Below are positions 26,281 through 41,281 of a stretch of 64,000 nucleotides of DNA, piece after piece. Numbering within the stretch: the stretch's first letter is position 1; each line of letters starts with the position of its first letter. Source of the stretch: Escherichia phage vB_EcoM_SA21RB; sequence record OL960580; one strand, written 5' to 3'. A program made the translations under genes and the position numbers. Below the pieces are notes generated by a model. The model worked only from the letters and a program-made list of their open reading frames with translations, made no database searches and was not told the DNA's origin.

Positions 26281-26468
26281 TATTCTTCTACATGTTGTTT
26301 ACGACCTTTCTTATCAATAAAGGTATATTCAACGAATGTTCCAATGTAGTCTTTATCTACATCATGTGGACTATTAATTGGACATTTAGTGCGGCAAATG
26401 CGTTCCCATTGACGAATAATTACTGCTTTGTTTTTAGGATCAAACGGATGTGGGTAATGTACTTTCAT
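26256..26468 (-). CDS. hypothetical small protein
   Basis: 70-aa ORF. Confidence 0.4.
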   Translation of the reverse strand: MKVHYPHPFDPKNKAVIIRQWERICRTKCPINSPHDVDKDYIGTFVEYTFIDKKGRKQHVEEYCLKVTWL

Positions 26469-26919
26469 AATCCACCACTATTAAATCAATATCAGGAGTA
26501 AACATGTCGATTAATTTAGAAACCTTATCCCAATCACCGCCAGCAATACCACAACCTATGCGTGGAATGTAAATTACTGGTTTAAACAAAAGGGTTTCTG
26601 CCTGTAGATTTAATTCTATCATGCAGTTTACTAAAGCACCATAATCAAGATTAGGACCTGGTTCGTATTGCGTATACAGGTTATAGCATATACCAAATCC
26701 CGTAGGACTATGTTTAAAAACAATAGACATATCGCCTAATTTATCACGAGAACCGTACTCAGTAGTGGTTTTATCTATTTCTAAAATTTTGGGATAGGCT
26801 CTTGCTAATTGACCCGCTACGCCTGAACCCATAGTATGAAAACAATTGCACCCGTGCGCAATAATATTACCTTGAAGAAATAGGGCGACAATATCGCCCT
26901 TGATATATTTTACAATCAT
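26440..26919 (-). CDS. macro-domain protein (ADP-ribose binding/processing fold)
   Basis: 159 aa; KGDIV...IIAHGCNCFHTMGSGVAGQLA and IGCGIAGGDWDKV match the two glycine-rich macro-domain motifs. Confidence 0.6.
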   Translation of the reverse strand: MIVKYIKGDIVALFLQGNIIAHGCNCFHTMGSGVAGQLARAYPKILEIDKTTTEYGSRDKLGDMSIVFKHSPTGFGICYNLYTQYEPGPNLDYGALVNCMIELNLQAETLLFKPVIYIPRIGCGIAGGDWDKVSKLIDMFTPDIDLIVVDYESTLPTSV

Positions 26920-27802: not shown

Positions 27803-28264
27803 TCATTGAGTTTTAATTACTGCTTTAGAAGCCTTTCCTGGTAAACGACGACTGTTAATAATTGCCATCCTGCATTGAAGCGACGGGTCTTTGAACTTCG
27901 CATTAGGTTTACAAACTGTAAATCCAAGCCAAAGATTTCCATCTGTGATTTCTAAACGTCCAGGACGATATTCAACCCCATCAATAAAATCCTCGTCAAT
28001 GTCAGGACGAGGAGGCATACTCAGGAATTCATTAACTTCTAAAACATGGTCTTTTATTTTATGGAATAATTCAAAAACGTATGTCTCATCAATCTCCCGT
28101 TGAATTGCACGATCAAGAAGATGTTGAGAATATTTTAGATGAAACGATGAGACCCCTGCTGCTTTTGATGCCTCACGAATCTCATTGTTAATTTGACGAA
28201 ACTCCGACTCAAAGTGACGACGAAGCTTATTTCGACGGATAAAAACTTCTGTGTTGATAGTCAT
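27803..28264 (-). CDS. regB: endoribonuclease RegB
   Basis: 153 aa; sequence MTINTEVFIRRNKLRRHFESEF matches T4 RegB; early promoter directly upstream. Confidence 0.88.
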   Translation of the reverse strand: MTINTEVFIRRNKLRRHFESEFRQINNEIREASKAAGVSSFHLKYSQHLLDRAIQREIDETYVFELFHKIKDHVLEVNEFLSMPPRPDIDEDFIDGVEYRPGRLEITDGNLWLGFTVCKPNAKFKDPSLQCRMAIINSRRLPGKASKAVIKTQ

Positions 28265-28323: not shown

Positions 28324-28602
28324 TTATTCTTTAAATCTAATCAATTTATTCATAGACTTTGAAACTTCTGCACGAACCTCATGTAGATTTTTGAGCTGTT
28401 CAAGGCGCTGCGTATAGTAAGCAATTTCATCTTCTTCGAGACAGTCCTGTGAATCTTCTTTAAGATAACGTGCATAGTCCTGGAAAGCGTTACGGATTAC
28501 TTCCTGGAAATCATCAAGACTTTGAATTTTCTTAGGAGCAGCAGATACACGACGAGGGGCAGTATAATACTCATAACCAAACCCTGCACTTAATTGAGCC
28601 AT
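28324..28602 (-). CDS. hypothetical protein
   Basis: 92 aa from internal Met [10 protein letters not shown] (track ORF starts 14 codons earlier). Confidence 0.4.
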
Positions 28603-28868
28603 TAATATTTTTCCTCTGGTTGGAACATTGCACGACAAGCCCACATACTGGCTTCTTTGAGTTTCGTTTTAGCAATAGTTAACTGATCGAGGCTTTCAGC
28701 ATAATTCTTCGCGAGTTCATCATCTTCACAGCTATCGAATGCTTCCCAGAATTCATCATATAAAGCATCAAAGATAAGTCCTAAACGAACTTCAGCGTCT
28801 TTGATAGCATTCACTTTACCGATTTTCTCTTCAGTATGCGGCTTATAACCTTTAATGTCTTCAATCAT
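28602..28868 (-). CDS. hypothetical protein (at the remembered position of T4 vs.4/Acb2)
   Basis: 88 aa from MIEDIKGYK; second ORF upstream of regB, where I recall T4 vs.4; sequence identity not verified. Confidence 0.4.
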
Positions 28869-29082
28869 ATTTGACTTCCTCACCAGTACATAAATCATAT
28901 TCAACTAAACGAATAGGTTCATGAATGCCATATCCCTGAACAGAAATTTCTGTCGTAGGATAAATTCCATCAATATCACCCATATTCCACGCTTCGTTAA
29001 ATTGCTGTTCGCCTGAATTACTAAACCACTCGGCGAAAGCATTTAGCACATCTTTAGAACCTTCAATAATTATCTTTGCCAT
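28861..29082 (-). CDS. hypothetical small acidic protein
   Basis: 73-aa ORF. Confidence 0.4.
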   Translation of the reverse strand: MAKIIIEGSKDVLNAFAEWFSNSGEQQFNEAWNMGDIDGIYPTTEISVQGYGIHEPIRLVEYDLCTGEEVKYD

Positions 29083-29444
29083 TACAAACTCTCGGTAAAG
29101 GTACGAGCGATAACGTCGCGCTGCTGTTCCGGAGTCAGAGAGTTAAAGCGAACTGCATAACCGGATACACGGATGGTCAGCTGCGGATATTTTTCCGGAT
29201 GCTTAACTGCATCTTCCAGAGTTTCACGACGCAGAACGTTAACGTTCAGGTGTTGACCACCTTCAACTTTAACTGTAGGCTGTTGCTCAATTTCAATTTC
29301 ACGGGCATGCAAACCGTAGAAAATTTCTGGGTCTACAAAAGAGTCCTCTTTAAAGGTTTTAGAGACAATAATTCGTGCTTGAATACCATCTTCAAAATAA
29401 ATAGTACCTTTATGTGTGCCTTCAAGAATTTGATATGCTTTCAT
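29082..29444 (-). CDS. autonomous glycyl-radical cofactor (GrcA/YfiD-like)
   Basis: 120 aa; C-terminal [25 protein letters not shown] is the glycyl-radical loop found in GrcA and pyruvate formate-lyase. Confidence 0.75.
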
Positions 29445-29778: not shown

Positions 29779-30365
29779 CATTGCATTCCGATTACGAAAA
29801 ACTGTGGACGAGTAATACCGCCAATACAACATTTAATATTACAGCAGCAGTGTACGGTGTCAATATGGACACTATAAATCTTATCCATATCAGGAGATTT
29901 GACAGGCTCGTCAATTATATACAAAATTCGCGAAAGCGATAAACCTCTGAACTTGCTTCCTTTATTACCTATAAAACTGCGCACAGAATCAGTAAATAAA
30001 CGAAAACGTATATCATCATTAGAATAACGCGAAAATTCCTTTTTAATGTTATTTGCAGAAATTTTAGCGTAAGCTGAAGTATTAGAAAGAACAATAACTG
30101 TTCCACCGTCATACAACCAATTAGCGGCAAAATTAGTTACTGCAGTTGATTTACCAGATTGACGTCCACCATCTAGTCGAAGTGTGCAATACTGCTTAAG
30201 TAAGTCTTCAAATGGCGGGATATATTCGTTTTTACAAATTTCTTCTACTCTAGCGTCAGAATGGTGTGTAAAAGCATTCATCAGGGATAGATAAGGACCA
30301 GTTAAAAATGTTCTCATTTTCTTCTCTCTAAATTTGGGCCATTCCATGGCGCATGAATTGTCCAT
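29778..30365 (-). CDS. P-loop NTP-binding protein
   Basis: 195 aa; Walker A GGRQSGKST, Walker B-like LYIIDEP; cysteine cluster at C-terminus. Confidence 0.5.
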   Translation of the reverse strand: MDNSCAMEWPKFREKKMRTFLTGPYLSLMNAFTHHSDARVEEICKNEYIPPFEDLLKQYCTLRLDGGRQSGKSTAVTNFAANWLYDGGTVIVLSNTSAYAKISANNIKKEFSRYSNDDIRFRLFTDSVRSFIGNKGSKFRGLSLSRILYIIDEPVKSPDMDKIYSVHIDTVHCCCNIKCCIGGITRPQFFVIGMQ

Positions 30366-30470: not shown

Positions 30471-30944
30471 TTATTTGAATGATTTGACGTACTGAATAGA
30501 ACCTTTACTATTCACGAAAGCGATTTTACCATTTTTATTATACATGGTAGCAGTACGCTGATAGCCATAAGTTTGTTTACCAGATTGATAACCAACTAAT
30601 GCGAAATTATCTTCACCCATTTTATTCTGTTTAGCGCGAATACGTTCATGACCGTGTGCCATAAGAACCTTAGCATCACCAGTTGCAATGGATCGACGAG
30701 TTTTTTCATCTTCAACTGTATTAACAAAGTCGTCAAATGAATCAAATTTAGCATGAGATTTATTATACAGTTTTCCATCTACTGCATAATTATATCCTTG
30801 TACATCCATCTCAACTTCTGTACCATCATCCAATACAGCAGTGATTTTCTGACCTTTTTTAAATTTCAAAAGATCAGTAAAAGATTCAGCAATAATTTGA
30901 GAATTAATAGCTGCTTCAGTAATAAATTCTTGATATGTTTTCAT
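30471..30944 (-). CDS. internal-protein-like protein with capsid targeting sequence
   Basis: 157 aa; N-terminal MKTYQEFITEA (T4 internal-protein targeting peptide with L/I-x-E cleavage motif); adjacent to ipIII. Confidence 0.65.
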   Translation of the reverse strand: MKTYQEFITEAAINSQIIAESFTDLLKFKKGQKITAVLDDGTEVEMDVQGYNYAVDGKLYNKSHAKFDSFDDFVNTVEDEKTRRSIATGDAKVLMAHGHERIRAKQNKMGEDNFALVGYQSGKQTYGYQRTATMYNKNGKIAFVNSKGSIQYVKSFK

Positions 30945-30985: not shown

Positions 30986-31567
30986 TTAAGAATTACCACG
31001 GGCTGCATTAGCAACGGCGTAAGCGTACTGAACATTAGCGTCTTTAAACGTACCTTTAGAGGTATCTAGTTCTGCCTTAAAGCCGCCTTTAGTCATAACC
31101 TCGGCGAATTCTTTACGGAAAGCCATTGCATCAAGGCTTCTCCATGATGATTTGTGCTTGGCGAATTCAAGACCAGCGTAGTTGACAGCCTTAGCTAATT
31201 TATTATCAATAACCCATTTACCAGATTTAGGCACAAACACCGGGCCTTTCTGTTTAGAGAATAGTTTTAAATTCCAGCGACGAAGGTCACCGTCAGCTTT
31301 AACAAAAGCTGCGTCCAAGTTACTAGCAACAACATCTTGAATATGACCAAATTTAAGCCCATCAACTTCAATATTTAAATCGGTACGCCAGCGAAGTCCT
31401 TCCCAAGCGAAGGCTTTAAAGTCGGAAGCCTTTGTAGCTAAGTACCGTTCAATAGGAGCTGTTTTAGGGTCAAAGCCGTTTCCCGATCGGTAGGTCCACT
31501 CATCTTTATTAATGCCTTTGGCCTTTACTACAGAAGCTTCGGCAATAAATTCTTGATAGGTTTTCAT
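30986..31567 (-). CDS. ipIII: internal protein III
   Basis: 193 aa; MKTYQEFIAEASVVKAKG targeting peptide and body matching remembered T4 IPIII; early promoter upstream. Confidence 0.85.
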   Translation of the reverse strand: MKTYQEFIAEASVVKAKGINKDEWTYRSGNGFDPKTAPIERYLATKASDFKAFAWEGLRWRTDLNIEVDGLKFGHIQDVVASNLDAAFVKADGDLRRWNLKLFSKQKGPVFVPKSGKWVIDNKLAKAVNYAGLEFAKHKSSWRSLDAMAFRKEFAEVMTKGGFKAELDTSKGTFKDANVQYAYAVANAARGNS

Positions 31568-36108: not shown

Positions 36109-36672
36109 TTATTTATCTAGTTTAGTTATTATAGCTTCTGCGGCAGCTTTTAGCTTAGATGCGGTGTTAATACGATTTTTAATTTCAGTATACGCATCGC
36201 CAAGAACATCAAGGCTATCAGAATAAACACTTACACTATTGCGTTCGCTATTTGAAATAGAACCTTTAGTTTTACGATCAAAATCGGTGTACACGTCTTG
36301 AAGATCACGGGCTGCCTTCTTTGCATCATCCAATGCGTCAAGAGCTTTATTCAAAGCATTAACGTATTTTTTAGTGTCAAACATATTCTTAGAAATTTTA
36401 ACAGGTGCGCGTTCAGGAGTAGCTAATGTAGATTTAGGAACCTGAGCGCCAGATGCCAATTTCTTAGAAATTTTGAAAAACGCTTTATTGAATTTATTTT
36501 CTTGACTCATCGTAAAAGAACTATTATCGATGTTGTACATTTCAATAGCTTTAGCTTTCCACTTAAGAAAATCGCCGCGGTCTTTTGGGTCCAAGTGGAA
36601 GAATACTTTAGTAAGATCTGCTTCAGATGGTAATTTTGCTGCTTCGGTTAAAAATTCGGCATAGGTTTTCAT
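36109..36672 (-). CDS. internal-protein-like protein with capsid targeting sequence
   Basis: 187 aa; N-terminal MKTYAEFLTEAAK resembles the T4 internal-protein targeting peptide; terminator hairpin downstream. Confidence 0.55.
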   Translation of the reverse strand: MKTYAEFLTEAAKLPSEADLTKVFFHLDPKDRGDFLKWKAKAIEMYNIDNSSFTMSQENKFNKAFFKISKKLASGAQVPKSTLATPERAPVKISKNMFDTKKYVNALNKALDALDDAKKAARDLQDVYTDFDRKTKGSISNSERNSVSVYSDSLDVLGDAYTEIKNRINTASKLKAAAEAIITKLDK

Positions 36673-36796: not shown

Positions 36797-37270
36797 TTAT
36801 TTGATTTGTTTAGCAGACCAAATGCGGTCTTTGATGATTTTTTGAATGTCTTCAACATACTCTAGGTCATGAGCATGTGGGTTATCTTTGAAACTATAGG
36901 CACGGGCTAACTTTTGGCCTTCGGTTTTGATTACTAAAAGCTCTTTAAGGATAGCTTCATACTTAGCGATAATTCCTTTAACAATATTTTTTTCTTGTGT
37001 AGCTTTAGGATCTGCTTTAGGAGCAGGTTTACCCGAAGCCTTTGCAAAAGCAGCACCAGTAGCAACTAAACTTTTCCAGGCCATACTAACCGCATTTCCC
37101 GTAAATCCTTCTGCTTTCATGTCGCGAGCAAATTGGAATCGTGATTCGTCAGAAGCATCTTTATAGGAATATTTACCTGCTGCAATGGCTGCTTTTGCGA
37201 CAGCTTGAATTTCGGTGCTAGATGCTTCATTTAACACCGCTTCATTTAAAAATTGAGCATATGATTTCAT
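36797..37270 (-). CDS. internal-protein-like protein with capsid targeting sequence
   Basis: 157 aa; N-terminal MKSYAQFLNEAV; flanked on both sides by near-identical terminator hairpins. Confidence 0.55.
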   Translation of the reverse strand: MKSYAQFLNEAVLNEASSTEIQAVAKAAIAAGKYSYKDASDESRFQFARDMKAEGFTGNAVSMAWKSLVATGAAFAKASGKPAPKADPKATQEKNIVKGIIAKYEAILKELLVIKTEGQKLARAYSFKDNPHAHDLEYVEDIQKIIKDRIWSAKQIK

Positions 37271-37664: not shown

Positions 37665-37740
37665 TGGTCGAGGCAGTAGGGATCGAACCTACGACCTAGG
37701 ACTTAGAAGGTCCTTGCTCTTCCTTCTGAGCTATGCCCCG
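37665..37740 (-). tRNA. tRNA-Arg (anticodon UCU)
   Basis: hand-folded cloverleaf; anticodon loop CTTCTAA; T-loop TTCGATC; encoded CCA. Confidence 0.85.
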
Positions 37741-37744
37741 TAAT

Positions 37745-37820
37745 TGGGGTGACCGATGGGAGTCGAACCCATGACTACGAGAATCACAATCTCGAGTTCT
37801 ACCAACTGAACTACGGCCAC
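37745..37820 (-). tRNA. tRNA-His (anticodon GUG)
   Basis: hand-folded; D-stem GTTC/GAAC, anticodon loop TTGTGAT, T-arm ATGGG-TTCGACT-CCCAT, discriminator C, encoded CCA. Confidence 0.8.
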
Positions 37821-37934
37821 ATTAATACCTACTCCAACAATCAAGATGTCTTCACACGAAATTAAGAGAAGAGTGATCAGTTCAACCCCGATAATCGCGT
37901 CAAGTAGATATTAATGTGACAGTTGTCACAAATT

Positions 37935-38009
37935 TGGCGGACGTGATAGGATTCGAACCTATAACCAATCGCTTAACAGGCGATCGCTCTGCCATTGAGC
38001 TACACATCC
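37935..38009 (-). tRNA. tRNA-Asn (anticodon GUU)
   Basis: hand-folded; acceptor GGATGTG/CACGTCC, anticodon loop CTGTTAA, T-loop TTCGAAT, encoded CCA. Confidence 0.85.
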
Positions 38010-38013
38010 AAAT

Positions 38014-38100
38014 TGGTGGGGAGTGATGGAGTCGAACCACCCGAGTCGCAATGACAATGGATTTACAGTCCACACCGCTACCTCTACGGGATAACTCCCC
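38014..38100 (-). tRNA. tRNA-Tyr (anticodon GUA)
   Basis: hand-folded; perfect acceptor GGGGAGT/ACTCCCC, anticodon loop CTGTAAA, long variable arm as in bacterial tRNA-Tyr, encoded CCA. Confidence 0.75.
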
Positions 38101-38113
38101 TTAATTCTTAATT

Positions 38114-38188
38114 TGGTGGCCCTGGGTGGAATTGAACCACCATCTGGCGATTATGAGTCGCTTGCTTGAACCTTCCAGCTACAGGGCC
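38114..38188 (-). tRNA. tRNA with CAU anticodon (Ile-lysidine type or Met)
   Basis: hand-folded; acceptor GGCCCTG/CAGGGCC, anticodon loop CTCATAA; lies after tRNA-Thr, where T4 has tRNA-Ile. Confidence 0.8.
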
Positions 38189-38189
38189 T

Positions 38190-38264
38190 TGGTGCTGATT
38201 GACGGAATCGAACCGCCGACCTTCTCATTACAAGTGAGTTGCTCTACCTACTGAGCTAAATCAG
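38190..38264 (-). tRNA. tRNA-Thr (anticodon UGU)
   Basis: hand-folded; perfect acceptor GCTGATT/AATCAGC, anticodon loop CTTGTAA, encoded CCA. Confidence 0.88.
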
Positions 38265-38270
38265 CAAAAC

Positions 38271-38360
38271 TGGCGGAGGCGATAGGATTTGAACCTATGA
38301 GTCGCCGGAGCGACTGCCGGTTTTCAAGACCGGTGCATTAAACCACTCTGCCACGCCTCC
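38271..38360 (-). tRNA. tRNA-Ser (anticodon UGA)
   Basis: hand-folded type II tRNA; acceptor GGAGGCG/CGCCTCC, anticodon loop CTTGAAA, long variable arm, encoded CCA. Confidence 0.85.
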
Positions 38361-38362
38361 AG

Positions 38363-38436
38363 TCTCCATACAAGGATTTGAACCTTGGACCTCCTGATCC
38401 CAAATCAGGCGCTCTACCAAACTGAGCTACACGGAG
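38363..38436 (-). tRNA. tRNA-Pro (anticodon UGG)
   Basis: hand-folded; anticodon loop TTTGGGA, T-arm CAAGG-TTCAAAT-CCTTG; CCA not encoded. Confidence 0.75.
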
Positions 38437-38446
38437 TAAATTAAAT

Positions 38447-38520
<74 letters not shown>

Positions 38521-38525
38521 AAATT

Positions 38526-38612
38526 TGGTGCGAGAAGTGGGACTCGAACCCACAAGGAAATCATTCCGCAGCATTTTAAGTGCTGTGCCTTTACCAATTT
38601 GACCATTCTCGC
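38526..38612 (-). tRNA. tRNA-Leu (anticodon UAA)
   Basis: hand-folded type II tRNA; acceptor GCGAGAA/TTCTCGC, anticodon loop CTTAAAA, long variable arm, encoded CCA. Confidence 0.85.
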
Positions 38613-38613
38613 G

Positions 38614-38686
38614 CTGGGAATAAAGGACTCGAACCTTTGCATCCTGGAATCAAAATCCAGTGCCTTACCAACTTGGCTAATTCCCA
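38614..38686 (-). tRNA. tRNA-Gln (anticodon UUG)
   Basis: hand-folded; perfect acceptor TGGGAAT/ATTCCCA, anticodon loop TTTTGAT; abuts tRNA-Leu (dimeric precursor as in T4); CCA not encoded. Confidence 0.85.

Positions 38687-40584: not shown

Positions 40585-41281
<697 letters not shown>

Follow-up and report, generated by a model that had tools for sequence, protein, structure and literature searches.

Organization of the vs.4 locus

The window analysed here, the whole stretch of 64,000 nucleotides from Escherichia phage vB_EcoM_SA21RB (OL960580), belongs to a Tequatrovirus and is collinear from 1 to 64000 with the T4 segment between 33.2 and 97.9 kb. The 1.5 kb around the small reading frame under study are 98% identical to many T4-like phages, and over the surrounding 25 kb the identity to Phaginator, ECML-134 and other such phages is about 96%. 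The genes are arranged as tk.4-vs-vs.1-regB-vs.3-vs.4-vs.5-vs.6(GrcA)-vs.7-vs.8, an order shared with T4 and RB14. Within it, the 88-aa frame delimited in the preliminary description holds to the exact nucleotide, on the minus strand, and it is the second frame upstream of regB, in line with the counting from that gene on which its position had been based (Table 1).

Table 1. Features of the vs.4 locus and of other parts of the window
Feature	Position	Strand	Remarks
ORF at the mobD position, 153 aa	21603..22064		
ORF at the mobD position, 173 aa	22067..22588		
tk.4, macro-domain gene	26440..26919	-	Pfam Macro 32 bits; 58% to T4 Tk.4
regB, endoribonuclease	27803..28264	-	Pfam REGB_T4 230 bits; 99.3% identical to T4 RegB
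vs.3, 92 aa	28324..28602	-	ATG overlaps the vs.4 stop (TAATG); 97.8% identical to T4 Vs.3
vs.4/acb2 CDS	28602..28868	-	267 nt, 88 codons plus TAA stop
Codon 81 of vs.4, ATG (Met)	28626..28628	-	GTG (Val) in RB14, Shinka, L003 and T4
vs.5, 73 aa	28861..29082	-	PHROG 1986; 8-nt overlap of its 3' end with the vs.4 start
Putative Shine-Dalgarno, GAGG	28878..28881	-	9 nt 5' of the ATG at 28868
vs.6, GrcA-like autonomous glycyl-radical cofactor	29082..29444	-	Pfam Gly_radical 67 bits; 97.5% to T4
Candidate sigma-70-like promoter, TTGACA-16-TAATAT	29836..29863	-	upstream of vs.7; consensus match
ORF with internal-protein type N-terminus	30471..30944	-	
ORF with internal-protein type N-terminus	30986..31567	-	
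ORF with internal-protein type N-terminus	36109..36672	-	
ORF with internal-protein type N-terminus	36797..37270	-	
tRNA cluster, 11 genes	37665..38686	-	Arg, His, Asn, Tyr, Met(CAT), Thr, Ser, Pro, Gly, Leu, Gln
57B/acb1, anti-CBASS cyclic-oligonucleotide phosphodiesterase	40588..41043	-	Pfam PF23474 Acb1 202.7 bits; 99.3% to T4 gp57B

Read from the minus strand, the frame opens with an ATG at 28868 and closes with a TAA at 28604-28602. Direct reading of the leader into this start (...GGTGAGGAAGTCAAAT-ATG) also provided the GAGG that would act as its Shine-Dalgarno element. We take this ATG as the true start because of the GAGG upstream of it, because the N-terminus M(S)IEDIKGY is common to all the homologues aligned, and because vs.4 is annotated as 267 nt in both RB14 and T4. 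The same 3 lines of evidence led us to reject the TTG start at 28904, which gives a product of 100 aa in a mechanical list of open reading frames.

The overlap of the vs.4 stop with the vs.3 start suggests that translation of these 2 genes may be coupled. On the other side, T4 has a vs.5 annotated with 58 aa that lies 36 nt apart from vs.4, whereas the longer vs.5 of the window runs into the vs.4 start, an arrangement shared with RB14, where vs.5 likewise has 73 aa and overlaps vs.4 and the genes follow one another in the same order. The glycyl-radical cofactor gene vs.6, a known T4 feature, lies 2 genes upstream of acb2. The sigma-70-like sequence upstream of vs.7 could tentatively be read as the promoter of a vs.7-vs.3 transcription unit that includes vs.4; the consensus scan that covers it returned 19 sites, with 14 expected by chance after shuffling. 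Matches to the MotA box (TGCTT) occur only at 29041 and 30276, on the minus strand, and GGAG sites for RegB are absent between 28560 and 28920. An Rfam gathering scan of the window returned 11 tRNAs only, and nothing near vs.4. In an expression atlas, expression of T4 vs.4 and 57B is predominantly middle/late.

Elsewhere in the window, several segments depart from T4. The tk.4 macro-domain gene is flanked by genes with 95-100% identity to T4, and it looks as if the allele of this possible ADP-ribose-processing protein had been swapped or had diverged. The tRNA cluster comprises His, Asn and Tyr genes in addition to the 8 genes of T4, and it is without the homing endonuclease gene segB that interrupts the T4 cluster. 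Jumps of the T4 coordinate along the alignment fall at mobB, mobC, the nrdD group I intron with I-TevII, mobD, segB and segC, all of which appear to be absent from the window. The mobD position holds 2 unrelated open reading frames, and the product of the shorter one looks hydrophobic and is possibly membrane-spanning. Four open reading frames begin with the internal-protein type N-terminus MK[TS]Y.[EQ]F..EA, which we take to be a capsid-targeting sequence; they encode an Ip4-like DUF7412 protein, ipIII (93% to T4) and 2 proteins without T4 counterpart or Pfam family. The genes denV and ipII, which in T4 lie between vs.8 and ipIII, gave no tblastn match in the window.

Homology, fold and ligand residues of the vs.4 product

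The preliminary description had guessed Acb2 for this frame from its position alone, and had proposed an alignment to T4 Vs.4/Acb2 and a structure prediction as checks. The alignment came out positive: among all PDB chains, phmmer gave as best match entry 7UQ2, 'Vs.4', over residues 1-88 of 88, with 83 of the 88 identical (E=4.4e-53), and the PaMx33 Acb2 entries 8H2J and 8IXZ followed as marginal second matches (E about 0.09). With T4 vs.4 as query, tblastn found 94.3% identity in the window. Pfam placed the Acb2/Tad1 hairpin domain (PF24729, Acb2_Tad1_hairpin) on the product with 67 bits (gathering cutoff 27 bits), covering profile positions 1-58 of 58. The protein also matched PHROG 717 (phrog_717) with E=6.4e-31, the group that defined 198 Vs.4 homologues in Jenson et al. 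2023 (PMC10097602). T4 Vs.4/Acb2 (NP_049728; 7UQ2) has the same length of 88 aa and occupies the same slot upstream of regB, flanked by vs.3 and vs.5.

The fold pointed in the same direction. AlphaFold2, given the single sequence as a monomer, predicted a two-helix hairpin with helices at 11-45 and 50-80 (pLDDT 86.1). When this model was compared with the PDB by Foldseek, chains of 7UQ2 occupied ranks 1-3 (E about 1e-9, TM 0.73) and PaMx33 Acb2 (8H2X/8H2J) occupied ranks 4-6 (TM about 0.70, probability 0.99-1.0), so that the proposed structural check, carried out on the hairpin monomer, also favoured Acb2.

Subsequently, we compared the residues to which functions have been assigned in T4. T4 Vs.4 is a hexamer that binds 3 molecules of 3',3'-cGAMP (Kd about 30 nM) in pockets each built from 2 protomers, where the bases are stacked on by Y8 and F82, and hydrogen bonds or salt bridges come from H11, K23 and R79 (Jenson et al., PMC10097602); a second study gave a cGAMP Kd of about 84 nM (PMC10312549). 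All the cGAMP-contact residues (Y8, H11, K23, S74, R79 and F82 in T4 numbering) are identical to T4 in the window protein, and so are those of the hexamer interface (L29, F33, A66, A73 and A77), where mutation disrupts or weakens the T4 hexamer (PMC10097602). T12 is likewise identical; S74N, T12I and A77I are loss-of-function alleles recovered in a screen of T4 Vs.4 (PMC10097602). In an alignment of 35 sequences, made up of the window protein, T4/7UQ2 and 33 IMG/VR homologues, these functional residues are invariant or nearly so, and those of the cGAMP pocket do not vary among the intact homologues.

The comparison with PaMx33 Acb2 (p26; 8H2J, 8H2X, 8IXZ), a published hexameric sponge for cyclic dinucleotides (CDNs) (Huiting et al. 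2023; Cao et al., PMC10312549), indicates to which type the window protein would belong. Both share the helical-hairpin fold and aligned Tyr and Lys ligand residues, but their sequence identity is only about 21-23%. PaMx33 Acb2 has in addition a second pocket, built around R67 and T74, which binds cA3 and cAAG (PMC10312549). This cyclic-trinucleotide pocket of the PaMx33/JBD67 type, a three-fold site for cA3 that also depends on a kinked helix, is not predicted for the window protein, which carries D61 and T68, as T4 does, where PaMx33 has R67 and T74. T4 Acb2 binds dinucleotides and neither cA3 nor cAAG, since it lacks an equivalent of R67 (D61 instead) and the helix kink, and even its D61R mutant does not bind cA3 (Cao et al., PMC10312549). 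From D61 and T68 we therefore predict CDN-only binding of the T4 type: we expect the window protein to bind cyclic dinucleotides and not cA3. Tad1 (Thoeris anti-defence 1) has in common with it the PF24729 hairpin domain and the sponge strategy, but is a separate family with another overall architecture and other primary ligands (gcADPR), and the window protein gave no direct sequence match to Tad1.

The gene is widespread: tblastn found a homologue in 1,231 phage records, where its usual label is 'hypothetical protein'. When its codons were compared with those of the Shinka allele, 9 differences were synonymous and 1 was non-synonymous, and purifying selection on vs.4 is evident. The Acb2 identity that had been guessed from position is thus upheld by the near-identity to 7UQ2, the Pfam and PHROG 717 assignments, the fold and the conserved residues. 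We are highly confident that the frame represents vs.4/acb2 in a T4-like phage (Tequatrovirus), and that its product would be a hexameric, CDN-trapping anti-CBASS sponge. The homology, the fold, the conserved residues and the synteny are direct observations, and by analogy with the 94%-identical T4 protein the window protein would assemble into a hexamer, bind the ligand and inhibit CBASS.

Residue 81 and the alternative readings

Five substitutions separate the window protein from T4: L44F, N46S, C50D, F52L and V81M. The first 4 lie between the helices, in a segment of hypervariable sequence and length across the family, and together they constitute the RB14/Shinka allele (ACP30765.1, QXV73195.1). 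With this allele the window protein shares F44, S46, D50 and L52 and is identical at 87 of 88 positions, V81M being the sole difference at the protein level; the RB14 gene differs from that of the window at 3 of its 267 nt. V81M arose at the codon level as a single G-to-A transition, from GTG to ATG. Residue 81 lies in a near-invariant C-terminal motif, adjoining F82, which stacks on cGAMP, and near R79, and its column holds Val in 32/32 of the other intact sequences, which cover 48-99% identity. A 20-residue tblastn probe carrying M81, run against 50,697 phage records, found no 20/20 match in 1,234 GenBank phage records, and a scan of the IMG/VR homologues (n=33), which included the pattern MWACRAMF, did not find M81 either. 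The exact protein is also absent from an index of 153 billion genes, which shows only that the allele is unrecorded, and V81 is not mentioned in 2 Panoptes papers (PMC12657218, PMC12657230).

It could be argued that V81M has turned this Acb2 ortholog into a hypomorph or specificity variant, weaker for some CDNs, for example the 2',3'-c-di-AMP that Panoptes uses as decoy; guard systems based on decoy nucleotides could select for such a change. The invariance of the position, altered here by one transition, the absence of the allele from the GenBank records and the exact-protein index, and the location of residue 81 beside the base-stacking F82 and the salt-bridging R79 would all agree with this proposal, as would the acb2 lesions of natural Panoptes-resistant T4-like phages, among them the affinity-lowering T68M of Bas35 (PMC12657230), and the laboratory Panoptes escaper F82C (PMC12657218). 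Val to Met is nevertheless a conservative hydrophobic change; the PaMx33 residue that phmmer aligns with position 81 is Ile, implying that larger aliphatic side chains are acceptable at this position in the family; and any contact of the residue 81 side chain with the ligand would be hypothetical. A lone rare polymorphism, or an error of sequencing or assembly, is a simpler reading, and we regard the hypomorph or specificity variant as very unlikely. Its adaptive form, in which V81M is a selected tuning that lowers affinity for the decoy, allows escape from Panoptes and keeps enough cGAMP binding to block CBASS, is very unlikely in our judgement; if true, it would be a case of natural evolution of sponge specificity under 2 opposing defence pressures. 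Because the change is conservative and PaMx33 carries Ile at the aligned position, we expect function to be retained despite V81M, which is probably neutral but could alter affinity.

A different ligand has also to be weighed, as Vs.4 might target another immune signal, the 3'cADPR of Thoeris, instead of the dinucleotides of CBASS. Such a specificity occurs in some distant Acb2 homologues, 10 of which inhibit type I Thoeris in a 2025 survey, so membership of the family alone leaves the ligand unfixed (PMC12393519). The 94% identity to T4 Acb2 and the identical cGAMP contacts speak against such a ligand, and those of T4 Acb2 have been measured directly, with affinities of about 30-84 nM for cGAMP and about 62 nM for 2',3'-c-di-AMP (PMC10097602, PMC10312549, PMC12657218), which makes the Thoeris signal a highly improbable target here. 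That the frame is a chance or non-functional one that merely falls at the vs.4 position is scarcely credible: its small size, and nothing more, would suggest it, and against this stand the 94% identity over the full length of a crystallised protein, the conservation in over 1,200 genomes of phages with mostly synonymous substitutions, the intact Shine-Dalgarno and the preserved overlaps of its start and stop with the adjacent genes. On the homology to 7UQ2, the 1,231 phage records and the 9:1 excess of synonymous over non-synonymous differences from Shinka, we rejected it.

Predicted role in phage defence evasion

As an Acb2 of the T4 type, the window protein would act as follows. The 88-aa product would fold into a two-helix hairpin and assemble into an interlocked hexamer with 3 pockets, each formed between 2 protomers and each trapping one cyclic dinucleotide, 3',3'-cGAMP or a related CDN. 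In these pockets Y8 and F82 would stack on the bases, and H11, K23, S74 and R79 would provide hydrogen bonds or salt bridges to the ligand, while cyclic trinucleotides would not be bound, as for T4 Acb2. The CBASS second messenger would in this way be sequestered rather than degraded, effectors such as CapV would stay inactive, and the phage would replicate. The same capacity to bind nucleotides would allow Panoptes (OptSE) systems, which work with decoy nucleotides, to detect the phage: T4 Acb2 binds the Panoptes decoy 2',3'-c-di-AMP and so triggers Panoptes (PMC12657218), and by analogy with T4 this liability is expected for the window phage.

The window also contains acb1, whose product in T4 is the functional partner of Acb2 and covers other cyclic oligonucleotides, so that both genes of T4 are present here too. 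The identification of vs.4/acb2 is already known biology to which nothing new is added, and the only new item is V81M, a rare and unrecorded substitution. What the locus indicates for this phage is that it carries the standard anti-CBASS pair, an Acb2 sponge and an Acb1 nuclease, from which broad evasion of cyclic-dinucleotide CBASS would be predicted and, conversely, sensitivity to Panoptes decoy-nucleotide defence. The assignment would be of use for annotation, as most deposited genomes label the gene 'hypothetical protein', and for choosing therapy phages.
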